Positions 4,363 to 64,000 of a DNA stretch of 64,000 nt are shown here, piece by piece. The notes beneath the pieces were generated by a model. The model did not search any database and had not been told where the DNA came from. It worked only from the letters and a program-made list of their open reading frames with translations. Made by a program: the position numbers and the translations under genes. Position 1 is the stretch's first letter. Each line of letters begins with the position of its first letter. The DNA comes from an uncultured Chloroflexia bacterium (GTDB lineage Bacteria; Chloroflexota; Limnocylindria; Limnocylindrales; CSP1-4): the NCBI GenBank assembly GCA_963749705.1, contig CAVVNQ010000016.1:32238-96237 (forward strand). Direction: 5' to 3'.

Positions 4363-4542
4363 TCAGCTCGAGTGACCGCGCCCGCGGGACGCCTTCGTCT
4401 CGTCGTTCTCGGCGCGTTCCTTGTTGACCGTCCGGGCAGCGATCTCCTCGGCCCGGTCCTCGGAGCGGCCCGCATCGAGCTCGCTCTCCTTGACATGCTC
4501 GTACTGTCGTTCGCGCTTCGGCGACCAGGCGTCCTGTGGCAT
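4363..4542 (-). CDS. small conserved stress-type protein (WSPKRERQYEHVK family, often labelled plasmid stabilization protein)
   Basis: Read manually: MPQDAWSPKRERQYEHVKESELDAGRSEDRAEEIAARTVNKER..., 59 aa; GGAGG RBS. Confidence 0.85.
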   Translation of the reverse strand: MPQDAWSPKRERQYEHVKESELDAGRSEDRAEEIAARTVNKERAENDETKASRGRGHSS

Positions 4543-4787
4543 CTCGCCTCCGTCCTTCGGGTCTCGTAACGTAGGTCTGCCGTCGCCAACGGGCCATCAG
4601 CGGGCCGCGGGTGCCTGTTGCAGCAACGTTGCACGGCCACGCCTGGACCACGCCGGCGAACCATGCGACGCGAACGACGCCGCGACCGGGCTCGCGGCCG
4701 TACCGGCAACGGTCTGCCTGTTCGGGCAGACAGCATGCACGGCGGGTTCTGGCTGCGGTCCGTGGTCGCGCGAAAATGGTCGGCAGC

Positions 4788-14300: not shown

Positions 14301-15276
14301 CCTCGCGTCGGTCGAGGCGGGACCGCTGGCCGATCTCGGCCGGGTCCAGCCGTTGGACGCCGCGCGCACGCGCCTCGTCGGTGCTCCGATCGCGGCGACG
14401 GCCTCCGGTCTGCTGTGGTACCCGGCCGACGCGTTCGCCGTTGCGGGCTACGAGCCACCGACCACCTGGGAGGCGTTGGAGCAGCTCGTCGAGCGGATGA
14501 TCCAGGATGGTCGCACGCCGTGGTGTCTCGGCCTGCTTGGGGGTGAGCACGATGGGGCCTACGGCGCCGACCTGATCGAGGACCTCGTGCTCGATGGAAT
14601 GGCCGCGTCCGGCTTTGACTCCTGGGCGGCCGGGCGAAGCGGCTTCAGTGTCGGCATCGATGGTGTATTTCGCCGCTATCACGCGCTGATCCAGCAGACT
14701 GGCGCCGTCCTCGGGGGCCCAGAGACGGCAGTTCGGACGCCGGCGGCGTGGGCGGCACTCCAGATGGGCCCAGGCGAGCTGCCGGCGTGCTGGCTGATCC
14801 ATGCGAGCGGCGATCAGCGGGCGACGTGGGAAGTGGAGGTTCGCGAGGACCTCACCCCGGTCCGCCTTCCAGTCGGCGCCGCAGGTGCGAACGAGCTGCG
14901 TGGGCGTGTGTACACGCTCGTCGTGCTTCGTGACCGGCCCGAGGTCCGGAACTTCGTGCGGTATCTGCTCGGCACGGAGTTCGCGGGCCGGCTGATCAGC
15001 GAGGATTCGGGAAGTGGGCTGGTCCCGCTCGCGTCCCCGGGTGCCGGGCCGACGCGAACCATCACCGAACGGGACATGGCCGGCCTCCTGGAGGCGGCGC
15101 TGGCCGCAGGCACATTCCAGGTTGACGCGTCTGACCGGATGGCGCGGGCACTCGGCGTGATCGCATTCCCCGAATCGGCCATGCGCGTCGCCGGGATCCC
15201 GGCAGGCTCCCCGGAGGTCGCCATCGCCAGCGAGGTCGACCTGCTGGAGCGGATCCGTCTCGAGGCGCTTCCTTGA
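11356..15276 (+). CDS. SARP-family regulator: wHTH + BTAD + STAND NTPase + TM + extracellular sugar-type solute-binding domain
   Basis: EPLREHLRAQLMRALYGAGRQADAL (BTAD), NPYKGLRPF..FFGRE, GPSGSGKSS (Walker A), LLVIDQLEELF (Walker B), TM, GLLWYP..YEPPTTWEAL..PWCLG (SBP). Confidence 0.9.
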   Translation: MEIRILGRVEIVDDGRATAIASRRQRALLALLVVHGGRPVSTERILDALWGDSPPDSGAGSVAFHVSRLRAALETGNRDNHDGNARGLIATEAGGYSLRIEPDAIDAARFERLAREGHEHLACEPAVAAGQLRDALALWRGEAFADLADLAFLQPEIARLHELRLRAFEDRFEADLALGRGREIAGEIASLVAEEPLREHLRAQLMRALYGAGRQADALRVYQEGRHLLADELGIDPSAELQALELAILRQDATLDVTRPSSGPRNPYKGLRPFGEADANDFFGREMFVARLLERLAVVSRSGGLLLLVGPSGSGKSSVIRAGLLPLLRPPGPGHETWRIAVMLPGSRPEEALLQALDDVVGKRRRPGSATTPEPTGVAAALSRAAAADPRRLLLVIDQLEELFALATDPAEPSKFLGGLAAAITGPAPRPAVIASLRADWFDRPLLSADLGALIRDAVEVVTPLTRDELERAIVRPAAAVGVELEPGLAADLEADVADRPGALPLLQFALTELFERADGQRLSRASYAAIGGVAGAVGRRAETVFASLDQPSRDVARQLFLHLVAVGEGRTVAARRVVVDDLRSIEATPERVDAVLDAFGRWRLVAFDRDPRTGQATVEPAHEALLTHWPRLAGWIHEAEEGLWMEGRLNALAAEWATADRDPGFLLSGSRLDLFETWSATTDIRLDGLERELLEASVAERRRAESVERDRRDQERRLERRASTRLRALVAVLLAAAIGTSGLLAVVWRQGEGAREDEAIATARELAVAANGRLDTDPALALLLAAEAARATADRGWITEEALDALHWAVQRARIPYPSSDVPVAVRLAPPPSDSRGVYLLPARDLIELAETSAGRSLTADECRTYLHQPACPAAERRPIDADLRVMTASGVVPMTDLAAQGTGGVSLRVFSQLPADLAGALADYAAKGGAISITDDGGTGDPGALVEQADVAILARPGDVADLARAGSLLSLAEVLSPADLASVEAGPLADLGRVQPLDAARTRLVGAPIAATASGLLWYPADAFAVAGYEPPTTWEALEQLVERMIQDGRTPWCLGLLGGEHDGAYGADLIEDLVLDGMAASGFDSWAAGRSGFSVGIDGVFRRYHALIQQTGAVLGGPETAVRTPAAWAALQMGPGELPACWLIHASGDQRATWEVEVREDLTPVRLPVGAAGANELRGRVYTLVVLRDRPEVRNFVRYLLGTEFAGRLISEDSGSGLVPLASPGAGPTRTITERDMAGLLEAALAAGTFQVDASDRMARALGVIAFPESAMRVAGIPAGSPEVAIASEVDLLERIRLEALP

Positions 15277-36039: not shown

Positions 36040-36070
36040 AGCGTACCGCTGATTGCATACTTGCGCAAGT
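36040..36070 (-). promoter_or_regulatory. arsR promoter TTGCGC-N17-TACGCT with palindrome ACTTGCGCAAGT over the -35
   Basis: Perfect 12-bp palindrome at 36059-36070 in an AT-rich patch. Confidence 0.6.
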
Positions 36071-36714
36071 TACAGATTACCTGCGGTTCCCACGATTCGC
36101 CGACGCGCGAGGATGACCGCGTCGATCGGAACCGGACCGCGGTCCGACCCCCGTCGCGCGGTCTCCGCGCGGAGGATCTCGAAGTCCGGTTCGAGCTCGG
36201 CGACGATCTCCGCCGGGATGAACAGGACGGATGGGTCCTGCGGGCCGCCGACGCCCTCGACCAGGTTCGCCCGGTCATGGGCGACGACCAGGAGCAACCC
36301 GCCGGGCGCGACGGCCGCGGCCGCGCCGCCGTAGACGCGCTGCCGCTCGTCGATCGGCATGTGGATGAACACCAGCACGACCAGGTCGTAGGTCGCGGGA
36401 TCGGGGCGCCACGCCAGCAGGTCCTCCCGGCGCCACTCGACGTCCGCACCGACGGCCGCGGCCCGGGCGCTTGCGCGCTCGATCGCGACGGTCGAGAAGT
36501 CCACGGCGGTGACCCGCCACCCGTGCCGCGCCAGCCAGATCGCGTTGCGTCCGTCGCCCGACCCGAGATCCAGCACCCGCCCCGGCTGCAGGCCTGTGCA
36601 GACCTCGACCAGCGTCGGATCCGGTTCGGACGATTCGATCGGATCCCGGCCGGCGTGCCGCTCATCCCATAGCGCACGTCGATCGATGGCCGCGCCCGGA
36701 TCCCCGTCGCTCAC
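36070..36714 (-). CDS. class I SAM-dependent methyltransferase
   Basis: LDLGSGDGRNAIWLA..VDFS..GVGGPQDP. Confidence 0.9.
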   Translation of the reverse strand: MSDGDPGAAIDRRALWDERHAGRDPIESSEPDPTLVEVCTGLQPGRVLDLGSGDGRNAIWLARHGWRVTAVDFSTVAIERASARAAAVGADVEWRREDLLAWRPDPATYDLVVLVFIHMPIDERQRVYGGAAAAVAPGGLLLVVAHDRANLVEGVGGPQDPSVLFIPAEIVAELEPDFEILRAETARRGSDRGPVPIDAVILARRRIVGTAGNL

Positions 36715-37517
36715 CGCGTCGTCCTCCGTCCCGGTTCGGCCTCCAGCCGCTCGCGGATGCGCGCGGCCATGGCGTCCTCGACCACGGTATCCGGATCCCG
36801 CAGCCCGCCGAGCGATGCCCGTACCCCGACCAGGCTCGCGTACAGCGGCGGGCAGGTCGGGCAGCCCTGCAGGTGCGACTCGACGGCGGCGCGCGTCTGG
36901 GCGTCGAGCTCCCCATCGAGATAGGCGGACACGTGGCGGCGGGCGCGCCAGCACCGCAGCGGCTGGGCCAGGCTCGCCTGGCGTCGCTCGTCATCCTCGG
37001 CCAGCGCGCTGACCAGCATCATCCGTCCCCTCCGTAGCCGCTGCTTGGTCGCGGGCAGGCCGGTGGACATGGCTGCCGCGATCTCCGCCGCCGTCCAGCC
37101 CAGCACGTCGTGCAGCACGACCGGGACCCGGTAGATCACGGGCAGTCGTGCCAGGCCATCCTCCAGCTCATCGTGGAGCTCGGCACGCTCGAGCACCCGC
37201 TCCGGGGCGACCGAATAGCGATCGTCGTGCCAGTCCGCCTCGACGGCATCGATGTCGAGCTCCTGGTGGTGCGCACGGGCCCGGTCGATGATCCGGTTCA
37301 CCAGGCTCCGGCGCAGCCAGGCCGCGAGTGCCCCGGGGTCCCGAAGCTGGTCCCGCCGGCGCCACGCGCCGATGATCGTCTCCTGGGCACAGTCCTCGGC
37401 CTGGTCCGGATCGCGGACGAGGCGGAGGGCGATGCCGACGAGCCTCGGGAGCTCGGCCACCAGGGCTCCCGCGAACGCGTCGCCGGGCGGCGGGAGCCCC
37501 TGGTCGTGGTCCGTCAT
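36711..37517 (-). CDS. ECF sigma factor with fused C-terminal zf-HC2 (ZAS) domain
   Basis: Sigma regions 2 and 4, then CWRARRHVSAYLDGEL..HLQGCPTC. Confidence 0.88.
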   Translation of the reverse strand: MTDHDQGLPPPGDAFAGALVAELPRLVGIALRLVRDPDQAEDCAQETIIGAWRRRDQLRDPGALAAWLRRSLVNRIIDRARAHHQELDIDAVEADWHDDRYSVAPERVLERAELHDELEDGLARLPVIYRVPVVLHDVLGWTAAEIAAAMSTGLPATKQRLRRGRMMLVSALAEDDERRQASLAQPLRCWRARRHVSAYLDGELDAQTRAAVESHLQGCPTCPPLYASLVGVRASLGGLRDPDTVVEDAMAARIRERLEAEPGRRTTR

Positions 37518-41252: not shown

Positions 41253-42560
41253 TCAGCGTGCGGGCGTGCGGGCCGGTGGCGACGCCTCGTCGATCGCGGC
41301 GGCATGCGTCATGTCGAGCCGGCGGAACTCCGGCATGGCCAGGGCGATCGCGCCCAGGCCGGCGATCGTGAGCAGGCCGCCGCTGATCACGGACAGCTGG
41401 GTGCCGATCGCGGCGGCCACGACGCTCGCCTCCGCGTCGCCGATCCGCGGCCCCCCGGTCACGACCAGGATATGGATCGAGGACACGCGCCCTCGCAGCC
41501 CATCGGGCGTGATCAGCTGGACGATCGAGCTGCGCAGGACGGCGCTGATCACGTCGGCCCCGGACGCGATCGCCAGGAACAGGAGCGCCAGCGGAAAGCT
41601 GAACGTCGCGAGGCCGAACGCCGTGATGCCCAGGCCCCAGACGGTGACCGCGACGAGGACCGCTCGACCCGGACGGCGGACCGTCGTCACCCGGCCGCTG
41701 AACAGCGCGGCCATCAGCCCGCCCAGCGCCGCGGCCGACGCCATCAGGCCGACGCCGGCCGGTCCCACGCGGAACACGTCGAGCGCGAGGGCCGGGTAGA
41801 GCGAGCGGGGCGAGCCGAAGACCATGGCGTTGATGTCCACGACGAACGTGGCCAGGACCTCGCGCCGGCTGCGGGCGTAGCGCAGGCCCTCGACGATCGT
41901 CGCCAGGCTCGGCCGGATCGCACCGGCGGCCGGCGCGATGGGCGAGATCATGAGCAGGGCGACGATGGCCGCGGCGAACGTGACCACGTCGATCAGGTAC
42001 GCGGCCGCGATGCCCATCGTCGCCAGGACGACGCCGCCGACCGCCGGCCCGACGACCGCGCTGCCGTTGAACACGAGCTGGTTCATCGCGATCGCCGCGG
42101 GCAGCCGCGCGGCCGGGACCAGGCGCGGGATCGCGGAGGCACGGGCCGGCTGGTCGATCGCCCCCAGCCCGGCGGCCACGAACGCGATCGCGTAGATCGC
42201 GAAGATCGACGGGTCGGGCAGGAACGCGAGCATGGCAAGCGCGAGGCTCGACAGGGCGAGGCCGGTCTGGGTCACCAGGAGCAGCTTTCGACGATCGACG
42301 GCGTCCGCCATGGCGCCACCGCCGAGCGCGAACACCAGGATCGGCACCAGCTGGACGAGCGACAGCGCCCCGACGGCCAGCAGGTCACCCGTGATCACGT
42401 AGATCTGGTACGGCAGGACGATGAACGTGATCATCCGGCCCGAGGTGCTGATCGCCTGCCCGAGCCACAGCAGCCGGAAGTCGCGGTCGTGGCGCAGGGG
42501 CGACGGATCGACGAGCAGGCCGCCCAGGCGGCGGCGGGGCGCGGGCGGGGGCTGCGTCAT
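41253..42560 (-). CDS. MFS transporter (EntS-like)
   Basis: RDFRLLWLGQ, GGAMADAVDRR, LRGRVSS..GGPRIGD. Confidence 0.92.
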   Translation of the reverse strand: MTQPPPAPRRRLGGLLVDPSPLRHDRDFRLLWLGQAISTSGRMITFIVLPYQIYVITGDLLAVGALSLVQLVPILVFALGGGAMADAVDRRKLLLVTQTGLALSSLALAMLAFLPDPSIFAIYAIAFVAAGLGAIDQPARASAIPRLVPAARLPAAIAMNQLVFNGSAVVGPAVGGVVLATMGIAAAYLIDVVTFAAAIVALLMISPIAPAAGAIRPSLATIVEGLRYARSRREVLATFVVDINAMVFGSPRSLYPALALDVFRVGPAGVGLMASAAALGGLMAALFSGRVTTVRRPGRAVLVAVTVWGLGITAFGLATFSFPLALLFLAIASGADVISAVLRSSIVQLITPDGLRGRVSSIHILVVTGGPRIGDAEASVVAAAIGTQLSVISGGLLTIAGLGAIALAMPEFRRLDMTHAAAIDEASPPARTPAR

Positions 42561-42714
42561 CGTCGCCCATGGTGACACCCGTCACGCCGGGCTGCGCCGG
42601 GCCAGTGCATCCGCCGCACGGGCGGACCCGGGCGCCCGCCGAGCGCCGGCCGAGCGCCACCGGAGCCACCGGGATGTAGAACACTTGTCCATGGTGCCCT
42701 CCCCATGGTAGCGT

Positions 42715-42731
42715 TCGACATACCGTGTACA
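42715..42731 (+). promoter_or_regulatory. CarH-like operator: TCGACA and TGTACA 11 bp apart, over the regulator start codon
   Basis: TnnACA repeats at 42715 and 42726; -10-like TAGCGT at 42709. Confidence 0.55.
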
Positions 42732-43630
42732 CCATCAAGGAAGCCTCGGCGCGAACGGGCGTCGGTGCCCCACTCATCCGGGCCTGGGAGCGACGCTACG
42801 GCGTGGTCAAGCCGACGCGGACGCCGGCCGGCTATCGCCTGTACGACGACGCGACGCTCCGCGTCCTGGTCGCGATGCGCTCCCTCGTCGAGTCCGGCTG
42901 GACCGCGTCAGAGGCAGCGCGTGCGATCGCCGCCGGTGAGGTGTCCGTGGACGAGGTCGCGGGACGGCCGGCCGCCGCGGGCGAGCCGGAGCGAGCCGGG
43001 AGGCACCAGGCGCGGCTGATCACCGAGTTCGTGACCGCGGCGGTGGCGGCATCGGCCGCCGACACGGAGGCCGTGCTCGACGAGATGCTCGCCGCCGGCT
43101 CGTTCGAGGCCGTGATCGACTCGCTGGTCCTGCCGGCCGCCGCGGCGCTCGGCGATGCCTGGGCCGCGGGCCGGCTGAGCGTCGCCGCCGAGCACGCGGC
43201 CAGCGCCGCCGTCGCGCGCCGGCTCGCCGCGATGTTCCAGGCAGCGGGCATTCCCGGCCGGACACCCGTCGTCGTCGGGCTCCCGCCGGGCGCGCGCCAC
43301 GAGCTGGGCGCACTCGCCTTTGCGGTCGCGCTGCGACGGCGCGGGGTCGGGGTCCTGTACCTGGGCCCCGACGTCCCCGTGGACGGGTGGGTCGATGCGG
43401 TCACCCGGACCCGCGCGAAGGCGGCTGTCATCGGCACGGTGGTGGCCGCGGATCCCGAGGCCGCGCTGCCGGTGCTCGACGCGATCCGTTCGCTTGGGCT
43501 CAGGCTGCTCGCCGTGGGCGGCGCCGCGGCCACGCCGGAGGTCGCCCGGCGACTGGGGGCCGTGGGGCTGCCGGAGCGCGTGGTCGATGCCGCGGTGGCC
43601 GTCGCCGACGTGCTGGCCCGCCGGGCCTGA
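42725..43630 (+). CDS. carH: MerR-family B12-binding photoreceptor regulator (CarH/LitR-like)
   Basis: RAWERRYG..RTPAGYRLY MerR HTH; W..EH (WAAGRLSVAAEH); RHELG B12-binding His; YLGPDVP. Confidence 0.85.
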   Translation: MYTIKEASARTGVGAPLIRAWERRYGVVKPTRTPAGYRLYDDATLRVLVAMRSLVESGWTASEAARAIAAGEVSVDEVAGRPAAAGEPERAGRHQARLITEFVTAAVAASAADTEAVLDEMLAAGSFEAVIDSLVLPAAAALGDAWAAGRLSVAAEHAASAAVARRLAAMFQAAGIPGRTPVVVGLPPGARHELGALAFAVALRRRGVGVLYLGPDVPVDGWVDAVTRTRAKAAVIGTVVAADPEAALPVLDAIRSLGLRLLAVGGAAATPEVARRLGAVGLPERVVDAAVAVADVLARRA

Positions 43631-43671
43631 CAGCCGGCGCCGCAGCTCAGGCGGCCCGGCAGCGGCCGGGA

Positions 43672-44673
43672 TCAGGCGTCCAATGCCGGATCGCCCGTCG
43701 CCGCCAGGGCGACGACCCGGTCCCACAGCCGGCAGCGAGCGGCAGCGGACAGTCGCGTGGACGGGAGCCGGTCGAATGGGCGCCGTCGACGGTCGAGGTA
43801 CAGGCCGCCGCTGGCGGGCATCGCGTCGTCGAGCGTGGCCAGCCACAGGATCGTGTCCGCCCCCGCATCCGGGGTGCGGAGCAGCGGGCGCATCGTCCGG
43901 TAGAACTCCGGCAGCGTCTCGGCCAGGCCCGGCGTGTCGGCCCAGCCCGGGTGCATGGCGGTGAAGGCTATGCGCTCGCCCCGCAGACGGCGCGCCCACT
44001 CCCGCATCAGCGCGACCTGCGCCCGCTTCGCGCGTGCGTACGCCTTGGGCCCGACGTAGTCGTCCTCTACGTACTGGAGGTCGTCGATCGGCAGCGGCTG
44101 CGTGTACATGCCGCCCGAGGTCACCGCGATCACCCGCGAGCCGCTCGTCCGCCGCAGCAGGGGAAGCAGCCCGGAGACCAGCGCGAACGGCCCCACGACG
44201 AGCAGCGCCAGCGTGGCCTCGATCCCGTCAGGCCCGATCGTCCGTTCGGGGAAGATCGAGCCCGCGTTGTCGACCACGACGTCCAGGCGGTCCTCGCTGG
44301 CGAGGATCGCCGCGACGGCACCCCGCACCGAGGCCAGCGACCCGATGTCCGCGACGACGATCGGGAACCGGTGCTCACGATGGCGCGCGACGAGCTCGTC
44401 GCGGACTCGGGTCAGCCGGTCCTCGCTGCGGCCCACCAGGATGACCCGCGCACCGAGGGCCGCGAACCGGTCGGTTGCCGCCCGGCCGAGGCCCGACGTC
44501 GGCCCGGTGACGAGCACCGTCCGGCCGTTCAGGGCTCCGGCCGCCGGCGCGCTCCAGCGAAACAGCCGGCGGCGGATCGCGGGTCCGATCCGGCTGAACG
44601 ACCCGATCACCGTCACCTCGAGCGCATCGTCGACGACGACCCGCGGATCGGGCATGGCCGCCAGGCGGGTCAC
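43672..44673 (-). CDS. short-chain dehydrogenase (DHRS12/retinol dehydrogenase-like)
   Basis: TGPTSGLG, SGGMY, YARAK, MHPGWADTPG; GTGA overlap with the heliorhodopsin stop. Confidence 0.9.
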   Translation of the reverse strand: MTRLAAMPDPRVVVDDALEVTVIGSFSRIGPAIRRRLFRWSAPAAGALNGRTVLVTGPTSGLGRAATDRFAALGARVILVGRSEDRLTRVRDELVARHREHRFPIVVADIGSLASVRGAVAAILASEDRLDVVVDNAGSIFPERTIGPDGIEATLALLVVGPFALVSGLLPLLRRTSGSRVIAVTSGGMYTQPLPIDDLQYVEDDYVGPKAYARAKRAQVALMREWARRLRGERIAFTAMHPGWADTPGLAETLPEFYRTMRPLLRTPDAGADTILWLATLDDAMPASGGLYLDRRRRPFDRLPSTRLSAAARCRLWDRVVALAATGDPALDA

Positions 44674-45476
44674 GGCCGGAGCGTCCCGGCGAACACCTGC
44701 CACGCGAGCAGCGACTTGGCGACCAGGCTGAACAGCATGTACGCGCGCTCGCCGTACAGGTAGTCGGCCCAGCGCCCGATCCGCCGGTACTGCAGGACCA
44801 TGTTGATCGCGAACACGTTGAAGCTGATGAACAGGGACACGAAGATCGCGATCACGAAGCCCGGGATCGCGGCCGCGCCCGGCTCGGTCGCGGCGGTCAG
44901 CAGGGCGGTCCCGATGACGAGCCACGGGACGATCCCGGCGATGCACCCGAACAGGTAGTGGAGCCACTGGACGCGGTCGCGGCCCTCGTTGGCGGCTTCC
45001 ATGCTCCAGCCGAACAGGTTCATCACGGCGTTGACGCCGAAGATGGCGATGAGCGTGCCGACCTCCTGGATCCCCGCGAGCTCCGCGATGATCACGATCA
45101 TCACGCTCGACGACAGCGCGTACTCGATCCAGCGAGCGGGGTTCTGGCCACGCGCCAGCCGGCGCTCGTACCAGCCGCGCGCCGGGCCGGCGACCGTGAA
45201 GTGCGCGATGGCGCTCAGGAAGAAGAACACCGCGACCGCCGGCCCGATCGGCAGGTCGAACAGGGCGCGCTGCGCGGGCACGAGCGTGCGGGTCGCCTCA
45301 TCGAACGTGAGATAGCTGCTGACCACGGGGGCGGTGACCACCGGGTCCTTCGCGAACGAGATCCCGAGGATCGCGAGGCCCTGCGCCGCGTGGAGGACGG
45401 CAAGCACCGCATTCCACCGGTTGAGGCTGCGTGCGCGGGGAGCCGGGATCACCCCGGGGATGCTGGACGGTTGCAT
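44670..45476 (-). CDS. heR: heliorhodopsin
   Basis: LHAAQ, SAIAH, NPARWIEYALSSS, GERAY..SLVAKSLLAW (retinal-binding Lys); AGAGGA RBS before ATG 45476. Confidence 0.95.
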   Translation of the reverse strand: MQPSSIPGVIPAPRARSLNRWNAVLAVLHAAQGLAILGISFAKDPVVTAPVVSSYLTFDEATRTLVPAQRALFDLPIGPAVAVFFFLSAIAHFTVAGPARGWYERRLARGQNPARWIEYALSSSVMIVIIAELAGIQEVGTLIAIFGVNAVMNLFGWSMEAANEGRDRVQWLHYLFGCIAGIVPWLVIGTALLTAATEPGAAAIPGFVIAIFVSLFISFNVFAINMVLQYRRIGRWADYLYGERAYMLFSLVAKSLLAWQVFAGTLRP

Positions 45477-45508
45477 CAGGTTTGTTCCTCTGTTGGGCAT
45501 CAGCAAAT

Positions 45509-45578
45509 GTAACAGACGCTTGACACCAAATTTAGCCTGCCGTAAGGTGCTGGGGATAGCTTATACAAAGTTTAGACA
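45509..45578 (+). promoter_or_regulatory. divergent promoter region: TTGACA-N17-TAAGGT with CarH-like repeats TATACA/TAGACA and GTAACA/TTGACA at 11-bp period
   Basis: Seen at 45509/45520 and 45562/45573 in an AT-rich spacer. Confidence 0.65.
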
Positions 45579-45590
45579 GGTGCGCAAGTC

Positions 45591-46037
45591 ATGGCCATCC
45601 TCAACGAGCAGCTGACAACATCCCTGGCGCCCGCTCAGGCCTTCGCGTTCATGGCGGATTTCGCGAACTCCGTCATCTGGGACCCCGGCGTGGTCTCGTC
45701 GGTGCGGATCGACGACGGCCCGGTGGGCATCGGGGCCCGATACCGGCTGGGCGTGAAGATGGCGGGCCGCACCGCGTCGATGGACTACGTGGTCACGGCC
45801 TGGGAGCCCGATCGCCGGGTCGTCCTGGAGGGCTCCGGGTCCGGCGTGATCGCCGTCGACGAGATCCGGTTCGAGCCCACGCCCGAGGGGACCCGGATCC
45901 ACTACACGGCTGACATCCGCTTCCGTGGCCTCCTGCGACTCGCGGCCCCGCTCGCCGGCGGCGCGTTCGCTCGGATCGCGCGCGACGCGCGCGATGGCAT
46001 GCAGCGCGCGCTGGACCAGCGCGCCACGGGCGCCTGA
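45591..46037 (+). CDS. SRPBCC/polyketide cyclase family protein
   Basis: [23 protein letters not shown]. Confidence 0.88.
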
Positions 46038-46045
46038 GGGACGCC

Positions 46046-47324
46046 GTGGACATCGCGATCATCGGCTCCGGGGTGAGCGGGCTGACCGCCGCCTGGGCCC
46101 TGGACAAGCATCATCGGGTGACGCTGTTCGAGCAGGATCCGGCGCCGGGTGGCCATGTCGCCACCGTCACCGTCGACGCAGCCGGCGGCCCGGTCGCGGT
46201 CGACACCGGGTTCATCGTCTACAACGAACGCACCTATCCCCGGTTCGTGGGGCTGCTCGCCGAGCTGGGCGTCGAGTCCCAGCCCAGCGACATGTCGTTC
46301 GGGTCCGCGTGCAGTGCGTGCGACATCGCGTTCAGCTCGCGTGGCGCCCGAGGCTTCTTCCCGGATCCCGGCACGGCCATCCGACCGTCGCAGTGGCGGA
46401 TGCTGGCGGACATCAGCCGGTTCTATCGCCACGCGCGCGAGACGCTGGACGCGTCGGCGCCGACCCGGGCGACGCTCGGTGAATGGCTCGACACGCACCG
46501 CTACGGACGGGGGTTCCGTGAGCATTTCCTGGTCCCGATCACCTCGGCCGTGTGGTCGACGGCCGCAGATCGCGTCCTCGAGTTCCCGGTCGACTACCTG
46601 CTCCACTTCCTCGACAACCACGGCCTGATCGGCTTCGGCAACGCGCCCCAGTGGCGAGTCGTGCGCGGCGGATCGCGACGCTACGTGGACCGCCTCATCG
46701 CGTCGCTGCGGCCCGGCGCCCTGCGCGCCGGCAGCCCGGTGGTCGAGGTCGTCCGCGACCAGCTGGGCGCCGCGGTCCGGACGGCGGACGGCGCCGTCGA
46801 ACGCTTCGACGGCGGTGGTGATGGCGACCCACGCCGACGATGCCCTGCGGCTGCTGCGCGACGCCGACGATCGCGAGCGCCGGGTCCTGGGCGGCTTCGA
46901 GTACTCGAGCAACCAGGTCGTGCTCCACACCGATACCGCGATCATGCCGGCGAACCGGCGGGCATGGGCATCGTGGAACGTCCATACGCCCGATTGCCGG
47001 ATGCCCGGCGACGCGCTCACGATGACCTACGACATGAGCCGGCTGCAATCGCTCCGTGGCCCGGACCGGTACCTCGTGTCGCTCAACCCGGGTGACGCGA
47101 TCGCGCCGGATCGGGTCATCCTGGAGCGGACGATGCACCATCCGATGTACACGTTCCGCACGCTGGCCGCGCAGGAAGGCGTGCGGGCGCTCCAGGGCCG
47201 GCGGCGGACGTGGTTCGCGGGCGCGCACCTGGGCTTCGGGTTCCACGAGGATGGCTGCCGGTCCGGGTTCGAGGTCGCCGAGCTGATCGGCGTACCGGCG
47301 GCCGAGACGGAGGCGGCGGCATGA
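46046..47324 (+). pseudogene. FAD-dependent oxidoreductase (UfaD-like), +1 frameshift at about 46811 (possible sequencing error)
   Basis: [19 protein letters not shown]; removing one G restores [22 protein letters not shown]. Confidence 0.88.
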
Positions 47325-48092
47325 GGTCCCACCTGCTGGAGGGCAAGGTCGGCCACCGCCGAGCGCGCCCGTTCAAATACGCGCTCGAGCACGATGTCTG
47401 GTATGCGGCGCTCGACCTCGACGAGATCGACGAGATCGACGCCCGGCTGCGGCTGTTCGGCCGCAACCGCCGCAGCGTCGTCGCGTTCCGCGACACCGAC
47501 CACCTGGTCGACCCGGTCGGTGATGTCGCGGCCGGCATCCGGGACCACCTGCGGACGGAGGGCGAGGATCCGGACGGGCTGGCGGGTGACGCTGGTCACC
47601 AACCTGCGGGTGCTGGGCTACGTGTTCAACCCCGCCAGCTTCTTCCTGTGCCGCGACGGATCGGGCACACTGCGGGTCGTGGTGGTCGAGGTCCACAACA
47701 CCTTCGGCGAGCGACACCTGTACACGCTGCGGCCGGGCGCGGATGGCGACGGGCGTGTCGGGGCGTTCACGGCCGCGATGGACAAGGCGTTCTTCGTGTC
47801 GCCGTTCATCAGCATCGACGGCCGCTACACCGTCCACGTCCGCGACGAGCCCGCCGGCCTGCGGCTCGCGATCAATCTCCGACAGGACGACCAGCCGGTG
47901 CTGAGCACGAGCCTCGTCCTCCGACGCCGGAGGCTGTCGGACCGGTCGCTCGTCCGCCTGCTGCTGCGTCACCCGCTGGTGACCCACAAGACGATCGGGC
48001 TCATCCACTGGCACGCCATCCGCCTGTGGCTCAAGGGTGCGCCGTTCTTGCGGCACGGCGCCGTCGCCTCGACGCCGGGAGCGGCCAGGTGA
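47321..48092 (+). pseudogene. DUF1365 protein (UfaO-like), +1 frameshift at about 47577 (possible sequencing error)
   Basis: HRRARP..LDLDE; shifted frame LGYVFNPASF..EVHNTFGERH..KAFFVSPF..IHWHAIRLW. Confidence 0.88.
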
Positions 48093-49330
48093 GCGGCGAG
48101 CTCACCGTCGGACGGGGCACGGTCGTGCCGGGACGGATCCTCGAGCAGGCCGCCCGCCGCGTGATGCTGGGCGCGGCGCGGCGAATCCGCGTGGGTCGCC
48201 TCGCGGTCGTGCTGCCCGACGGTTCCCGGCGCGTCTACGGCGACCCCTCGTCGGCGCACGCGGGCGAGCTCCGGGTGCACGACATGGCGGCTGCGGTCCG
48301 GATGCTGCTGGGCGGCGAGATCGGGGCGGGCGAGGCCTACATGGACGGCCTGTGGTCGAGCCCGGACCTGCCGGCACTGCTCCGGGTCGCCGCGCTCAAC
48401 CGGGAGGCGCTGGCGCTGCCACGGGGCTGGTGGCGGATCCCCCTCCGGGCGCGGAAGACGCTCGCGCACCGCGTGCGGAGGAACACGGTCACGGGCAGTC
48501 GGCGCAACATCGAAGCGCACTACGACCTCGGCAACGACCTCTACCGGCTGTTCCTCGACGAGACGATGACCTACTCCAGCGCCGTGTTCGGGTCGCCGGA
48601 CCAGTCACTCGCCGATGCCCAGCGCAACAAGTACGCGGCGATCGCCGCCCGGGCCGGGCTCACCGGTGGCGAGCACGTGCTCGAGATCGGCAGCGGCTGG
48701 GGCGGGTTCGCGCTGTACGCGGCGGGCGAGCTGGGCTGCCGGGTCACCACGATCACGGTCTCGCCGGCACAGCACGCGCTGGCCACCGAGCGGGTCGCGG
48801 CGGCGGGCCTCGCCGACCGGGTCAGCGTGGAGCTGCGCGACTACCGCGCGATCCAGGGCACCTACGACGCCGTCGTGTCGATCGAGATGCTGGAGGCCGT
48901 GGGCGCCGAGTACTACGCCACGTTCTTCGCGGCGTGTGACCGGGCGCTGCGACCCGGCGGGAAGGTCAGCCTCCAGGTGATCACGCTGCCCGATGTCGCC
49001 TACGAGCCACAGCGGCGGGGCGTCAACTGGATCCAGACCTACATCTTCCCGGGCGGTCTGCTCCCATCGCTGGCAGCGATCGAGCGATCGCTGCACGGGA
49101 CGCATCTGGTGGTCCGCGAGGTCGACGATATCGCCGCATCGTACGTGCGGACGCTGCAGGCGTGGCGCGCGGCCTTCTTCGCCCACCTGGACGAGGTCCG
49201 CGCGCTCGGGTTCGACGACCGGTTCATCCGGATGTGGGACTTCTACCTGTCGATCAGCGAGGCGGGGTTCGCGACCGGGCTGACCCAGGATCTCCAGATC
49301 GTGCTCGAGAAGGGTCGCGGGCTGGCCTGA
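48089..49330 (+). CDS. cfa: cyclopropane-fatty-acyl-phospholipid synthase family methyltransferase (UfaM-like)
   Basis: GEAYMDG, HYDLGNDLY..MTYS, EIGSGWG, SIEMLEAVG, YIFPGG. Confidence 0.93.
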   Translation: MSGELTVGRGTVVPGRILEQAARRVMLGAARRIRVGRLAVVLPDGSRRVYGDPSSAHAGELRVHDMAAAVRMLLGGEIGAGEAYMDGLWSSPDLPALLRVAALNREALALPRGWWRIPLRARKTLAHRVRRNTVTGSRRNIEAHYDLGNDLYRLFLDETMTYSSAVFGSPDQSLADAQRNKYAAIAARAGLTGGEHVLEIGSGWGGFALYAAGELGCRVTTITVSPAQHALATERVAAAGLADRVSVELRDYRAIQGTYDAVVSIEMLEAVGAEYYATFFAACDRALRPGGKVSLQVITLPDVAYEPQRRGVNWIQTYIFPGGLLPSLAAIERSLHGTHLVVREVDDIAASYVRTLQAWRAAFFAHLDEVRALGFDDRFIRMWDFYLSISEAGFATGLTQDLQIVLEKGRGLA

Positions 49331-49338
49331 CCGGGGCC

Positions 49339-49393
49339 CGCGGCGCTTCGCCCGGGCCTGACGCCTGACGCGGCGCTTCGCCCGGGCCTGACG
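49339..49393. repeat. 25-bp direct repeat CGCGGCGCTTCGCCCGGGCCTGACG x2
   Basis: Copies at 49339 and 49369, right after cfa. Confidence 0.85.
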
Positions 49394-49734
49394 AGGCGCC
49401 CTTCCCCGCCTGACTCATCGGGTGCATCACGGTCGAGGTCGGGCTGGCCGCTCGCGGCCCGATCGCCCGTTCCGGGCCGCGAACTCGTGTCCGGGGCCGC
49501 CATTTGACGCGCCGCGTGAGTCAGGCGCGAGCGCCCTGGCGAGGACCGTCCGATACGGGCAGGGCCGGTGGCCCGCGCCCGGCACCCCGCCCTATCGAAC
49601 GATCCATGCCGTCCGGTCGATGTCGCGGCAACCGGCGCCGAGACCCGGATCCAGGGGCACATTGAGCGATCGACGCGTCACCGGTAGGGTGCGATCACCG
49701 GGCGAGGGCCCCGGCCTGCTCGAGGTGTCGCACG

Positions 49735-50769
49735 GTGGATCCGAACGTCGTCCTCCCACTCCTGTCGTCCACGCTGAGCTTCGTGTTCGCGCTGTTCCTG
49801 CTCGACCAGTGGCTCGAGCGCCGCCGGTCGTACCAGCTGATCTGGACGCTGGGCATGGTCTGGTACGGCATCTCGGCGGGGACGGAGTTCGTGGGCGGTG
49901 CGTTCGGCTGGAGCGAGCCCCTGTACCGCGCCTGGTACCTGATCGGTGCCGTGTACGTGGCAGCGTGGCTGGGCCTGGGCACGATGTACCTCCTGGGCCG
50001 GACTCGCTTCGGCTACGGGGCCGCGTTCAGCGTGCTGCTGGCCGGGCTGTTCACGCTGCTGTCGCAGGCCAAGGCGGCCTATACCGACACCGGGATCCTG
50101 CCGGTCGCCGCGTTCGCGATCGCCATCCTGGGCGCCGTCCTGATCTCGGTCGAGACCTTCCGCGGGACCGGCCGATGGGCCTGGATCGCCGGGATCCTCG
50201 TGGCCGGTGGGTCGCTCGCCGCGGTCCCGATCGTGCTCACCGCGTCGATCCCGGCACCCGGGTATGCGCTGGATGCATCGGGCATCCCGGTCGGATCGCT
50301 GATGCCGGGCTCCGTCCGCCTGCTGACCCCGCTGTTCAACGTGACCGGCGGCTTCGCGCTCGCGCTGGGCGCGCTGTACAGCACCTACGTGTTCATGCCC
50401 AAGCGGCGAGCGATGCGCTACGACCTGACGCGCGCCCGTGGCACGATGTCGTTCGTCCGGAACCTGCTGATCGCGCCGGTCGCGATCACCGTGAACCTGG
50501 TCGTCTCGATCCCGGGCGCCGTCCTGGCGCTCGTGCGTGGGCAGCTTCACAGCCGGGTGCCGGCCACGATCCTGCTCGCGATCGGCGGCTTCATCCCGTC
50601 GCTCACCAGCGGCCTGTCGCGGTTCGGCGTGACCCAGACGTTCTTCCTGGGCGAGCTGCTGGGCGTCGTGTTCCTGTTCGCCGGCTTCCTGGTCTCGATC
50701 GAGGTGTTCCGCGAGATCCGGATCCCGTTCACGCACCGCGTGCTGCGCGTCCGTCAGGAGAGCGTCTAG
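49735..50769 (+). CDS. multi-pass membrane protein, function unknown
   Basis: About 9 hydrophobic segments; YRAWYLIGA..LGLGTMYLL. Confidence 0.85.
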   Translation: MDPNVVLPLLSSTLSFVFALFLLDQWLERRRSYQLIWTLGMVWYGISAGTEFVGGAFGWSEPLYRAWYLIGAVYVAAWLGLGTMYLLGRTRFGYGAAFSVLLAGLFTLLSQAKAAYTDTGILPVAAFAIAILGAVLISVETFRGTGRWAWIAGILVAGGSLAAVPIVLTASIPAPGYALDASGIPVGSLMPGSVRLLTPLFNVTGGFALALGALYSTYVFMPKRRAMRYDLTRARGTMSFVRNLLIAPVAITVNLVVSIPGAVLALVRGQLHSRVPATILLAIGGFIPSLTSGLSRFGVTQTFFLGELLGVVFLFAGFLVSIEVFREIRIPFTHRVLRVRQESV

Positions 50770-56337: not shown

Positions 56338-57799
56338 ATGCCCGCCCGGAAGGAGATCCTCGACATCGGCGGCCGCGAGGTCGCGGTCAGCAACCCCGAC
56401 AAGGTCTACTTCCCCCAGCCCGGCTACACCAAGCTGGACCTGGTCCGCTACTTCCTGGCCGTCGCTGACGGCGCGCTGGCAGGTGTCCGCGGGCGGCCGA
56501 TGGCGCTCAAGCGGTTCGTGGACGGGATCGACAAGGAGCCGTTCTTCCAGAAGCGCGCGCCCCAGAACCACCCCGACTGGATGCGGGTCGCGACCCTGAC
56601 CTTCCCTTCGGGCCGGACGGCGGACGAGATCGTGGTCGACGAGGCCGCGGGCCTGGCCTGGGTCGCCAACCTCGGCTGCATCGACCTCAACCCGCACCCC
56701 GTCCGCGCCGAGGACCTGGACCATCCCGACGAGCTCCGCGTGGACCTGGACCCGGTTCCCGGCGTGCCGTGGTCGCAGATCCGCGAGGTCGCGATGGTCT
56801 GCCGCGAGGCGCTCGATGCCGTCGGCCTGGTCGGCTGGCCCAAGACGTCCGGCTCGCGCGGGATCCACATCAACGTCCGGATCGAGCCGCGCTGGACGTA
56901 CCCGCAGGTCCGGCGAGCCGCGCTGGCGCTGGCCCGCGACGTGGAGCAGCGGGCGCCCTCGATCGCGACCTCGAAGTGGTGGAAGGAGGAGCGCCACGGC
57001 GTGTTCCTCGACTACAACCAGAACGCGAAGGACCGGACGGTCGCCTCGGCGTACTCGGTCCGGCCGCTGCCCGATGCCCGGGTCTCGTTCCCGCTGCGCT
57101 GGGAGGATGTCCCGGACGTGGTCGCCGAGGACTTCACGCTGGCCACGGTGCCGGGGTTGTACGCGGAGCGCGGTGACGCGGGCGCCGGGATCGATGGTGC
57201 CGTCGGCTCGCTCGACGCGCTGCTGGAGCTGAGCGCCCGCCACGAGGCCGAGGGCCTGGGCGACGCTCCGTGGCCGCCCGAACTACGCGAAGCAGGAGGG
57301 CGAGCCCCCGCGCGTCCAGCCGTCGCGCAAGCGCCGTCCCGACGCCGAGTACCGGGGGCGGGGCCGAGAGGGCGGTCCGCCGCCCGAGGTTGCCGCCGAG
57401 CGGGCCGCCGCCGTGGCCGCGGGCGACCCGAACGCGGGCCTGCCGACCGAGTGGGAGGGCACCCGTCCGACGCCGACCGGCCGGCGGCGATCGAGCATCC
57501 CGGTCATCGAGATCGCTCGCGCCGCCACCAAGGCCGAGGTCAACGAGGGGCTCGAGCGCTGGAAGGCCCGGCATCCGGAGGTGGTCGAGCACCTGGAGCC
57601 CGCCGACATCCTCACCGACGGCATGCGCGGCCGGGCGTATGTCTGGTACCGGCTGCGGGTGAACCTGATCCACGTGCCCGAGGACATCCGCCCGCCGCAG
57701 GAGCCGCTGGACCCCGACTACGACCCGTGGGAGGGCTACGAGTGGCCGGATCGGGCCGGACAGCCGGAGCGGGCACCGCGCAGGAAGGCTCGGCAATGA
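56338..57799 (+). pseudogene. LigD-type primase-polymerase (PolD2/Rv0269c-like), +1 frameshift at about 57278 (possible sequencing error)
   Basis: FFQKRAP, DELRVDLDP, KTSGSRGIH, DYNQN; removing one C restores PWPPNYAKQEGEPPRVQPSR and the C-terminal IEIARA..ERWKARHP..DYDPW extension. Confidence 0.88.
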
Positions 57800-57874
57800 G
57801 ACGGCGCCATCGCTGCGGGTCCGGGCGCCGGCTGGAGCGTGCCGTTGGGGGGCGCCCGACGTAGCATCTGGCCC

Positions 57875-62851: not shown

Positions 62852-63937
62852 CTACCCGAAGATCCGGGCGAGCTCGTACGGCGCGGTCGTCTCCAGCTGG
62901 TCGTAGCGGCAGTCGGCCGGCGCCTTGTCCGGTCGCCAGCGCCGGAACGTCGTCGCGTGCCGGAAGCGGTCGCCCTGGAGGTGGTCGTAGGCGACCTCGA
63001 CCACGCGCTCCGCGCGCAGCGGCTCCCACGACAGGTCCTTGCCCCGGTTCCAGCGCGACGTCGCACCCGGCAGCCGCTGGCCGGAGGCGTCGGCCGCGCC
63101 CGCGGCCGCCCACTCGGCCCACTCGCCCCAGGGGTGGCCGTCGAGCGCACCCTCGCGCAGCGGTGCCAGCTCGTCGACCAGGGCGGCCCGCCGGTCCCAG
63201 GTGAACGATGACGTGATCCCCACGTGGTGGAGCGTCCCGGCATCGTCGAACAGGCCAAGGAGCAGCGACCCGACGTGCGTCCCCGGTCCGTTCTTGTGCC
63301 ACCGGAACCCGGCCACGACGCAGTCCGCGGTCCGCTCGTGCTTGATCTTGAACATCGCCCGCTTGCCGGGCAGGTACGCGCCGTCCAGCCGCTTGGCCAC
63401 GACGCCGTCCAGCCCGGCGCCCTCGAACCGGTCGAACCAGTCCGCGGCCAGCGCGCGATCGCGGGTCGCCGGCGTGAGGTGGATCGGCGGGACGGCGTCG
63501 CCCAGCACCCCCTCCAATCGCGCCCGCCGCTCCTCCTGGGGGACGGCGCGCAGGTCGTCGTCACGCAGCGCGAGCAGGTCCCACGCCACGAACGATGCCG
63601 GTGCCTCTGCCGCGAGCATCCGCACCCGGGATTCGGCGGGGTGGATCCGCAGCAGGAGGGCGCCGAAGTCGAGCGCGCCGCCGCGCGCGATGACGACCTC
63701 CCCATCGAGCACGCACCGCTCGGGCAGCTGGGCGAGGAACGGCTCGGCGAGCTCCGGGAAGTAGCGGTCGAGCGGCTTGAGGTCCCGGCTCTGCGTGTAC
63801 ACCTCGTCGCCGTCCCGGAACACGATCGCCCGGAACCCGTCCCACTTGGGCTCGTACAGCCAGCCGTCGCCGTCGGGCAGGTCGGAGGTCGCCTTGGCGA
63901 GCATCGGCTCGAGGGGCGGCGAGAACGGCAGGGACAT
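62852..63937 (-). CDS. ligC: ATP-dependent DNA ligase (LigC-type)
   Basis: EPKWDGFR, LDGEVV, GLDGVVAK, KIKHERTADCVV, WRPDK. Confidence 0.93.
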   Translation of the reverse strand: MSLPFSPPLEPMLAKATSDLPDGDGWLYEPKWDGFRAIVFRDGDEVYTQSRDLKPLDRYFPELAEPFLAQLPERCVLDGEVVIARGGALDFGALLLRIHPAESRVRMLAAEAPASFVAWDLLALRDDDLRAVPQEERRARLEGVLGDAVPPIHLTPATRDRALAADWFDRFEGAGLDGVVAKRLDGAYLPGKRAMFKIKHERTADCVVAGFRWHKNGPGTHVGSLLLGLFDDAGTLHHVGITSSFTWDRRAALVDELAPLREGALDGHPWGEWAEWAAAGAADASGQRLPGATSRWNRGKDLSWEPLRAERVVEVAYDHLQGDRFRHATTFRRWRPDKAPADCRYDQLETTAPYELARIFG

Positions 63938-64000
63938 GCGGGCACGATACCGCGGCCGGCCGCCCCGCATGGGGGATTGCGGGTTTCCACGGAACGACGC

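Follow-up and report, generated by a model that had tools for sequence, protein, structure and literature searches.

A candidate light-response locus in a Chloroflexota genome: a CarH-type regulator beside heliorhodopsin and a divergent fatty-acid operon

The locus considered here lies in a 64,000-nucleotide stretch of DNA (hereafter the window) from an uncultured Chloroflexia bacterium (NCBI GenBank assembly GCA_963749705.1, contig CAVVNQ010000016.1, positions 32,238 to 96,237 of the forward strand). It comprises a gene for a CarH-type regulator (carH), a heliorhodopsin gene followed by a gene for a short-chain dehydrogenase/reductase (SDR) and, divergent from these two, genes for an SRPBCC protein, a flavin adenine dinucleotide (FAD) oxidoreductase, a DUF1365 protein and a fatty-acyl methylase, the last three of which are called ufaD-like, ufaO-like and ufaM/cfa-like below (Table 1). 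As judged from sequence comparison, the locus is probably a light-response module run by a CarH-type photoreceptor and repressor that uses coenzyme B12 (adenosylcobalamin; AdoB12). To our knowledge, the physiological role of heliorhodopsin has been open since its discovery and few partner enzymes are known; we know of no binding between a heliorhodopsin and an SDR.

The G+C content is approximately 72% across the whole window, so that raw lists of open reading frames (ORFs) are crowded with false frames; genes were called using third-position G+C periodicity together with Pfam. The nearest relatives of the heliorhodopsin come from metagenome-assembled genomes (MAGs) of Chloroflexia, Chloroflexota or Candidatus Limnocylindria. 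For comparison, 80 heliorhodopsin loci (1,158,319 bases) were collected by a heliorhodopsin alignment scan, with one genome per species. All counts given below refer to the DNA fetched around heliorhodopsin. The window and one of these loci, L001, are collinear and share 92-95% of their nucleotides.

The first-pass annotation of this DNA had proposed a MerR-B12 regulator carrying the W..EH and histidine motifs of CarH, and the alignments bear this out. The protein matches Thermus thermophilus CarH (PDB entries 5c8d and 3whp) with an E value of 2e-42, both domains being aligned. Its MerR_1 helix-turn-helix (residues 2-69; Pfam E value 7e-14) aligns with the CarH DNA-binding domain, its B12-binding_2 domain scores above the Pfam cut-off (E value 6e-9) and its residues 103-281 align with residues 108-283 of 5c8d (E value 2e-28), in keeping with the C-terminal four-helix bundle and Rossmann B12-binding module of this class. 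Furthermore, W146-x9-E156-H157 and the axial His192 fall on the W-x9-EH motif and the lower axial histidine of Thermus CarH, in which W-x9-EH is linked to AdoB12 photochemistry. The same W, E, H and H residues are retained in 17 of 17 full-length CarH-like relatives encoded next to heliorhodopsin genes, a comparison that left out the proteins of L003, L036, L040, L065 and L077, which are broken or cut by contig ends. The regulator passes every sequence-level test for CarH/LitR class I proteins except the curated equivalog score. By analogy with the characterized members, it is predicted to bind DNA in the dark in an AdoB12-dependent manner and to be released by light.

According to passages of a published account (PMC9304148), CarH operators are built from tandem 11-bp nnnnTnnACAn repeats that overlap the -35 or -10 element, Thermus having three such repeats and Bacillus four, and binding extends to operators that combine one or two true repeats with pseudo-repeats. 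In the window, the exact pair TNNACA-N5-TNNACA occurs three times in 64,000 bases, against a mean of 0.14 in 100 shuffles, none of which reached three, and all three pairs fall in the two promoter regions of this locus. The two intergenic stretches, which are A+T-richer than the window, were also shuffled locally with dinucleotides preserved: the two matches upstream of carH were reached in none of 20,000 shuffles, and the single match in the 114-bp spacer between heliorhodopsin and SRPBCC in 125 of 20,000. The TnnACA repeats that had been reported at 42715/42726 and 45562/45573 are both exact; however, the pairs at 42675-42691 on the minus strand and at 45509-45525, each lying over a -35 element, had been missed. 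As in the CarH class, tandem 11-bp TnnACA repeats lie over promoter elements, including those of the regulator's own promoter, although they are laid out in pairs and not as three or four contiguous repeats.

The promoters themselves were read by eye from conservation, with a relaxed -10 element (TAnnnT), since a strict scan returned none. At the carH promoter, a TGnTAnnnT element ending approximately 10 nt before the GTG start was seen by eye at the same place in 10 of 10 upstream regions. The start codon at 42725 follows the candidate extended -10 element of the window by 10 nt, and the mRNA would therefore be leaderless or nearly so. In the divergent spacer, two candidate sites, designated O1 and O2, accompany a predicted rightward (ufa-like) promoter and a putative leftward heliorhodopsin promoter (45560-45587); the latter was likewise recognized by eye from its conservation, and O2 occupies its spacer and -10 element. 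A terminator scan of positions 42400-49600 gave only two terminator-like sites, both inside genes. The carH and SDR genes are convergent, and the 41 nt that separate them fold no better than shuffles do (z = -0.19); no terminator is claimed there.

The full arrangement is kept in nine of the 80 loci (L001-L006, L009, L010 and L013), in the order methylase - DUF1365 - FAD oxidoreductase - SRPBCC, divergent from heliorhodopsin - SDR, and then carH. L017 is a rearranged tenth, in which the SDR gene heads the lipid operon and carH follows heliorhodopsin; the SRPBCC gene is syntenic in 10 loci. Ten divergent spacers could be aligned, with a mean column identity of 66%. O2 is the best conserved block of this region, all eight of its specified bases (T, A, C and A of both hexamers) being invariant in 10 of 10. 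TTGAC of the rightward -35 element (45520-45524) and A45544 and T45548 of the rightward TAnnnT are likewise invariant in all ten, the ACA of the upstream pseudo-repeat of O1 is at least 90% conserved at 11-bp spacing, and a leftward TTGnnn-16/17-TAnAAn was found by eye in all ten sequences. At the carH promoter, the start-site pair (42715-42731) is exact in nine of ten sequences including the window, that is, in eight of the nine syntenic loci. The pair over the -35 element (42675-42691) is exact in five of ten (the window, L001, L005, L006 and L010), and L002 and L009 have one mismatch (by eye).

The repeats are also specific to these genes. Across the 80 loci, 55 exact pairs were found on either strand, and 49 of them lie at heliorhodopsin-operon or carH promoters. 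Counted by position, 47 of the 55 fall in the 260 nt that precede the start of a heliorhodopsin or carH-like gene, two in the spacer of L039 between a photolyase gene and a DUF378-fusion-heliorhodopsin operon, and six elsewhere. A CarH-like gene is present in the fetched DNA of 21 of the 80 loci, and the motif lies within 250 nt of the heliorhodopsin start in 18. The proposed link between a B12 regulator, heliorhodopsin-SDR and the lipid operon had been offered together with an appeal to synteny and motif conservation in relatives; both are found (the cluster in 9/80 loci, O2 invariant in 10/10), and with the 49/55 specificity they support the link at the level of sequence. Overall, the predicted CarH control of heliorhodopsin is strongly supported by the comparison.

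In a second arrangement (L028, L037, L040, L045 and L046), carH is divergent from an operon in which heliorhodopsin follows a fusion protein of approximately 470 residues, with DUF378 in front of the fusion in some cases. The fusion consists of an SRPBCC domain and a NAD(P)-binding (nicotinamide adenine dinucleotide or its phosphate) NmrA/epimerase-like domain, which parallels the window, where SRPBCC and the SDR have a gene each. In L028, L037 and L045, the longest ORFs called for the fusion and for heliorhodopsin share 4 nt. In L039, a photolyase gene (1418-2746) replaces carH, divergent from the heliorhodopsin operon and with repeat pairs between. In several loci, the gene that comes first after the predicted CarH-type operator, before the fusion and/or heliorhodopsin, encodes the DUF378 membrane protein. 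The operator of the second arrangement is split, with TnnACA-N5-TTGACA over the -35 element and a further pair after the -10 element. The start-to-start spacing of exact pairs is 53-54 nt in L028 and L046 and 42-46 nt in L036, L077 and L078, compared with 53 nt in the window, and the TnnACA-N5-TTGACA layout beside carH is found in L028, L036, L037, L040, L045, L046, L060, L077 and L078.

In a third arrangement, three contiguous perfect repeats, the middle one forming a TTGACA -35 element, stand upstream of a solitary heliorhodopsin gene (L018, L026 and L043), an array that resembles the Thermus CarH operator; L050 shares this arrangement, with two exact repeats. There is no carH gene within 10 kb in these cases, so that the regulator would act in trans. 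Motifs before heliorhodopsin or carH also occur in L060 (an Anaerolineaceae MAG), in L066 and L078 (Actinomycetota MAGs) and in two Limnocylindria with distant heliorhodopsins (L065 and L077). A heliorhodopsin tree (FastTree, 79 sequences, midpoint root, descriptive only; L049 and L051 were dropped as short or interrupted) places the three arrangements in three separate clades, with the other cases far away.

Table 1. Genes, candidate regulatory elements and comparable features of other loci. Positions are those of the window unless a locus is named.
Feature	Position	Strand	Remarks
MFS_3 transporter	41253-42578	-	Leftmost gene of the locus; divergent from carH
Candidate operator half-site at carH promoter	42675-42691	-	Exact; + strand TGTAGA-N5-TGTCCA; overlaps candidate -35
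Candidate -35 of carH promoter	42685-42690	+	TTGTCC; overlapped by repeat pair 42675-42691
Candidate extended -10 of carH promoter	42706-42714	+	TGG-TAGCGT; by eye
Candidate operator half-site at carH start	42715-42731	+	TCGACA-N5-TGTACA; exact; spans predicted transcription start and carH start codon
CarH-type regulator	42725-43630	+	301 aa; MerR_1 + B12-binding_2 + B12-binding (Pfam)
Classical SDR	43672-44673	-	333 aa; Pfam adh_short, E 1e-25
Heliorhodopsin	44670-45476	-	268 aa; Pfam E 5e-95
O1 (candidate)	45509-45525	+	Pseudo-repeat GTAACA-N5-repeat TTGACA; TTGACA is -35 of rightward (ufa-like) promoter
Candidate -10 of rightward promoter	45543-45548	+	TAAGGT; 17 nt after TTGACA
Candidate leftward heliorhodopsin promoter	45560-45587	-	-35 TTGCGC (45587-45582), 16-nt spacer, -10 TATAAG (45565-45560)
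O2 (candidate)	45562-45578	+	TATACA-N5-TAGACA; exact; best conserved block of divergent region
SRPBCC (Polyketide_cyc2), lipid-binding type	45591-46037	+	Pfam E 2e-18; opens rightward operon
UfaD-like FAD oxidoreductase	46046-47324	+	Frameshifted; Pfam Amino_oxidase/NAD_binding_8
UfaO-like DUF1365 protein	47321-48092	+	Frameshifted; Pfam DUF1365
UfaM/Cfa-like fatty-acyl methylase, S-adenosylmethionine (SAM)-dependent	48089-49330	+	413 aa; Pfam CMAS, E 8e-81
SRPBCC-NmrA fusion	L028 8499-9965; L037 1623-3020; L039 ~3210-4613; L040 1132-2535; L045 3553-4953; L046 8460-9965		Directly upstream of heliorhodopsin
DUF378 membrane protein	L037 996-1214; L040 509-727; L045 2900-3118; L078 1674-1910; L039 2921-3136		72-78 aa
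Three contiguous repeats	L018 9855-9882; L026 9847-9874; L043 4721-4748		~105-118 nt upstream of heliorhodopsin

The mechanism proposed from these features follows that of characterized CarH proteins. In the dark, an AdoB12-bound oligomer would occupy the pairs of 11-bp-spaced TnnACA repeats. At the regulator's own promoter, one pair would be covered over the -35 element and the other at the start site. In the divergent region of 114 bp, the rightward -35 element falls within O1, and O2 lies just downstream of the rightward -10 element, which on the other strand is inside the leftward spacer and -10 element; binding at these positions would block both interdigitated promoters at once. The CarH tetramer has four DNA-binding domains and each site here has two repeats, and one tetramer may therefore bridge both pairs, which lie roughly four or five helical turns apart, across the -10 element; alternatively, two oligomers may bind. 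Light would break the Co-C bond, the oligomer would dissociate and both transcription units would be expressed: to the left, heliorhodopsin translationally coupled to the DHRS12-like SDR, and to the right, the SRPBCC protein, the UfaD-like desaturase, the UfaO-like oxygenase and the UfaM/Cfa-like methylase. The comparison itself shows the genes, their motifs and synteny, and how conserved and specific the repeats are; DNA binding, the response to light, the identity of the lipid made and whatever heliorhodopsin does besides being co-induced are what we infer.

Several observations weigh against such a CarH-type module. The best NCBIfam model for the regulator is the CarH equivalog (NF052513), at 169.2 bits where the cut-off is 400, and the protein is for this reason named CarH-type, a distant member rather than an equivalog; the Pfam B12-binding domain scores 22.3 bits, below the gathering cut-off of 32.1. 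Per site there are only two perfect repeats, the sites being 40-54 bp apart, in contrast to the three to four contiguous repeats of the best studied operators, and the second hexamer of the start-site pair also encodes carH codons V-Y-T, so that its conservation is partly coding. A strict sigma-70/terminator scan of positions 42400-49600 found no promoters. The ten syntenic sequences are relatives (their heliorhodopsins are 79-97% identical) and not independent observations, and neither a CarH-like gene nor the motif is present in the fetched DNA of 53 of the 80 heliorhodopsin loci, many of these 53 being short contigs. In addition, no genes for retinal, carotenoid or B12 synthesis or for B12 uptake were detected by Pfam in the 64-kb window, and Rfam matched nothing at gathering thresholds over the whole window, so that no cobalamin riboswitch was recognized there. 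Finally, the UfaD-like and UfaO-like genes do not have intact reading frames in the window.

The heliorhodopsin-SDR pair and the rightward genes form predicted operons: stop and start codons overlap between heliorhodopsin and SDR, and successive rightward genes overlap by 4 nt at ATGA (47321, ufaD-ufaO) and GTGA (48089, ufaO-ufaM). The order FAD oxidoreductase - DUF1365 - methylase is that of ufaD-ufaO-ufaM in R. palustris (RPA2571, RPA2570 and RPA2569, respectively), as given in the relevant passages of PMC7380195, where UfaO (RSP1090) is a DUF1365 protein and UfaD (RSP1091) a NAD/FAD protein resembling phytoene desaturases. The suggestion of a Ufa-type trio is thus upheld by the three families and their order, and the SRPBCC-FAD oxidoreductase-DUF1365-cfa operon stands as first described, with all genes present and divergent, apart from the frameshifts in its ufaD-like and ufaO-like genes, which had been overlooked. 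The likeness of the window proteins to those of Rhodobacter is by family and description and not by direct sequence comparison. The lipid product cannot be deduced from the gene list, because, again according to parts of PMC7380195, furan fatty acids do not require the CMAS-like, 186-aa and 245-aa proteins that the Rhodobacter operon encodes.

An operon that makes a cyclopropane, a simple methyl-branched or dienoic fatty acid or another modified lipid instead of furan fatty acids, with a Cfa-type methylase in place of UfaM, is a possible if doubtful alternative. Methylated and furan fatty acids are the products of the ufa enzyme set, the furan acid arising via 11-methyl-12-trans-18:1 and then the 10,12-diene; in Rhodobacter, these products scavenge singlet oxygen. 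For the methylase here, NCBIfam gives cyclopropane fatty acid synthases as the best models (310 and 254 bits), but both scores are below the cut-offs. Sections of PMC7380195 describe R. sphaeroides RSP1089, a CMAS-like protein of the ufaD/ufaO operon, as unneeded for furan fatty acids, UfaM being encoded elsewhere, whereas the R. palustris methylase next to ufaD-ufaO is a functional UfaM. Furthermore, neither DUF1365 proteins nor the FAD enzyme have a known role in cyclopropanation. The DUF1365 protein matches no NCBIfam model. The SRPBCC protein gives 43.6 bits (cut-off 100) with an NCBIfam toxin-antitoxin model, the 'Rv0910 family', which is read as general SRPBCC similarity. A tuberculostearate-type pathway (methylase plus FAD reductase, as we presume its enzymes to be) was considered and dropped, as DUF1365 and the amine-oxidase-type flavoprotein fit the ufa set. 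In two loci, L004 (4730-6058) and L013 (4616-5998), a photolyase gene lies directly downstream of the methylase on the same strand. A short contig, L041 (6-3719), carries DUF1365, methylase, a weak NmrA-like match and then heliorhodopsin on one strand, which is another way of joining lipid genes to heliorhodopsin.

The ufaD-like gene has a +1 insertion near 46813, with a switch of the coding frame near 46800 in the frame plot and a Pfam match limited to the N-terminal part, and the ufaO-like gene has one near 47575, with DUF1365 profile positions 1-76 and 79-232 in two frames. At each place, the window has one extra base relative to L001, L002 and L005. In L001, the orthologues are single ORFs of 425 residues (UfaD-like) and 256 residues (UfaO-like), and the DUF1365 protein matches profile positions 1-232 in one piece (E value 5e-74). 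If the frameshifts were real, the regulation would be as proposed but the lipid arm would be dead in this genome, with only heliorhodopsin, the SDR, the SRPBCC protein and perhaps the methylase being made. Among approximately 20 kb aligned with L001, there are three uncompensated 1-base coding indels (46813, 47575 and 36097, the last at the end of a methyltransferase ORF), and the fact that two of the three are in adjacent genes of one pathway exceeds an even spread of errors. However, third-position G+C periodicity is fully preserved in each half of the two genes, and their 93-96% amino-acid identity to L001 equals that of the intact neighbours. The start/stop overlaps at the junctions are undamaged, and either insertion is readable as a single surplus G where a few Gs stand together. 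Further broken genes occur in related MAGs (in L003, CarH and ufaD-like; in L004 and L017, several), which points to assembly indels. A dead lipid arm is consequently unlikely, and assembly error seems a more likely source of the frameshifts than recent inactivation.

The heliorhodopsin is recognized by Pfam PF18761 (317.9 bits, cut-off 26.7) and by the NCBIfam HeR model (317.7 bits, cut-off 100), and it aligns end to end with solved heliorhodopsins (PDB entry 6is6, E value 6e-65), with the Schiff-base lysine of the last helix, the glutamate and the two histidines matched. K254, E118, H29 and H92, whose usual functional names we presume to apply, are invariant across 20 sequences. A ribosome site, GAGGAA, lies 8 nt upstream of ATG 45476, and this start is supported by homologues at 93-95% identity that are also 268 residues long. 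As had been claimed, heliorhodopsin is coupled to the SDR: its stop codon overlaps the GTG start of the SDR (GTGA) in the window, and the overlap recurs in nine of nine syntenic loci, with GTG in eight and TTG in L010; in L006 and L009, the overlapping GTG is the sole start codon upstream of the conserved SDR N-terminus. An SDR start at ATG 44655 was replaced by this GTG following the comparison of relatives. In the SDR, the TGxxxGxG motif (T56-G57...G61.G63) and the N136-S186-Y212-K216 tetrad are invariant in 27 sequences. Homologues of 333 residues cover 100% of the protein, and one source names homologues 'dehydrogenase/reductase SDR family member 12' (DHRS12); a PDB sequence search with the SDR returned two distant multidomain SDR entries and nothing closer.

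The best lead on the role of heliorhodopsin is its recurrent translational coupling to a NAD(P) oxidoreductase, with an SRPBCC domain always nearby. In heliorhodopsin-partner systems, the partners are glutamine synthetase and the ABC transporter OmrDE, and the present operon is similar in that heliorhodopsin is joined to an enzyme that it might modulate. Extending the B12-triggered photoprotection proposed above, heliorhodopsin might be a second-tier photoreceptor: CarH would be the first to sense light and would induce it together with a dedicated NAD(P) oxidoreductase, the DHRS12-like SDR here and the SRPBCC-NmrA fusion elsewhere, both translationally coupled to heliorhodopsin, and heliorhodopsin, once lit, would bind and tune this enzyme, whose substrates would be membrane lipids or retinoids, in parallel with the furan fatty acid enzymes of the ufa type. 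This proposal is speculative and unlikely; if true, one large heliorhodopsin clade would gain a concrete partner, a pathway and a physiological role in defending membranes against photo-oxidation.

A still less probable arrangement is that the SDR (and SRPBCC) serve heliorhodopsin, for example with a retinol-dehydrogenase-type SDR supplying or recycling retinal and SRPBCC carrying a hydrophobic ligand. DHRS12-like SDRs are, we assume, close to retinol dehydrogenases. The translational coupling in the window, the SRPBCC-NAD(P)-binding fusion coupled to heliorhodopsin in the second arrangement and the lack of blh or crt genes in the window are consistent with such service, and passages of the preprint of Chazan et al. 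describe blh as rare near heliorhodopsins, another retinal route being suspected. However, the SDR gene of L017 stands apart from heliorhodopsin, at the head of the ufa-like operon, so that the SDR may be an enzyme of the lipid module and not a heliorhodopsin partner, and the early view of heliorhodopsin-SDR as a unit is upheld for the coupling here but weakened in this respect. SDRs are also described in ufa-type clusters of Rhodobacter and Pseudomonas that are without heliorhodopsin, as far as the consulted parts of those sources extend, and the PDB search with the SDR gave no informative relative.

Least probable is that the conserved box between heliorhodopsin and SRPBCC is a mere promoter or the site of another factor, with the CarH-like protein regulating only itself or sensing B12 supply instead of light, as O2 does coincide with a good minus-strand -10 element and O1 with a perfect -35 element and there are only two repeats per site, but the invariant bases include spacer positions dispensable for a promoter, the hexamers in 11-bp phase are found again beside carH and in the company of other promoters, strands and neighbours, and W-x9-EH is universal in these regulators.

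The predicted CarH-type module resembles the CarH/LitR systems of Thermus thermophilus, Bacillus megaterium and Myxococcales in domain architecture, W-x9-EH, the axial histidine, 11-bp repeats at -35/-10 elements and predicted autoregulation. In contrast to their carotenoid (crt) targets, the predicted targets here are heliorhodopsin, SDR/NmrA-type oxidoreductases, SRPBCC, DUF378, photolyase and ufa-type enzymes. The operators also differ, with known ones comprising three to four contiguous repeats and the window type consisting of split two-plus-two sites 40-54 bp apart, and one site here would serve two interdigitated divergent promoters. According to parts of PMC9758184, Pseudomonas LitR/CarH-family regulators control light-induced genes including phrB and ufaM, and the region of a LitR-type regulator gene holds a short-chain dehydrogenase and a FAD-dependent oxidoreductase. 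The same lipid module and regulator family are thus shared with the Pseudomonas class II LitR proteins (PplR1/PmlR1), and a lipid arm under this regulator family is not new; however, as described there, class II LitR works with light-oxygen-voltage (LOV) photoreceptors and its regulon is without heliorhodopsin, whereas the regulator here has the full AdoB12 signature. UfaD, UfaO and a CMAS-type methylase are also shared with the sigmaE-ChrR regulon of R. sphaeroides (RSP1091-1087, UfaM) and with RPA2571-2568 of R. palustris, which has the same gene order, and passages of PMC7380195 place the Rhodobacter and R. palustris genes in a photo-oxidative stress context. Control in Rhodobacter is by an extracytoplasmic function (ECF) sigma/anti-sigma pair sensing singlet oxygen, in contrast to the predicted B12 photoreceptor sensing light.

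Surveys of heliorhodopsin neighbours, in the sections consulted, list 'MerR family regulator' and 'SDR' among ten frequent neighbour groups (PMC11109279) and 'cobalamin-binding proteins' among neighbours, with lipid remodelling or oxidative stress proposed as a function (10.1101/2021.02.16.431466); those sections neither name CarH, describe operators nor propose light-induced heliorhodopsin expression. A literature search, with subscription journals and supplements outside its scope, found no paper linking CarH/LitR to heliorhodopsin. LitR/CarH control of ufa-type genes is therefore already known, and heliorhodopsin as the main target and the unusual split operator appear to be new. In several Chloroflexota and Actinomycetota lineages, the heliorhodopsin gene stands behind a recognizable predicted CarH operator, which predicts that a cell makes heliorhodopsin, along with photolyase and lipid defences of the singlet-oxygen type, once light has been sensed by another photoreceptor and not before. 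This would be a testable clue to heliorhodopsin function, narrows the search for its partners to two translationally coupled oxidoreductases and would extend the CarH regulon beyond carotenoids. The split two-plus-two operator on two interdigitated promoters may also interest users of CarH as an optogenetic part.

Beside these genes, the MFS_3 gene adjoins carH in L001-L004 and L006, whereas L009 and L010 have it at another place; as the repeat pair at 42675-42691 is directed toward this gene, it could belong to the regulon. A conserved hydrophobic protein of 344 residues, which matches nothing in Pfam or NCBIfam, is encoded 400 nt beyond the methylase (49735-50769, +); its L001 counterpart shows 97% identity, and its distance varies in other loci. 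At 36070-37517 (-), a single ORF combines ECF sigma regions 2 and 4 with a zf-HC2 anti-sigma zinc finger and overlaps a methyltransferase ORF; given the uncompensated 1-base difference from L001 at 36097, it may be another frameshift or a fused call. A 1306-aa regulator (11356-15276, +) has Trans_reg_C, BTAD and nSTAND1 NTPase domains and a solute-binding-like C-terminal part. Two end-joining repair parts, a LigD primase-polymerase (56338-57864, +) and an ATP-dependent DNA ligase (62852-63970, -), are encoded 5 kb apart.

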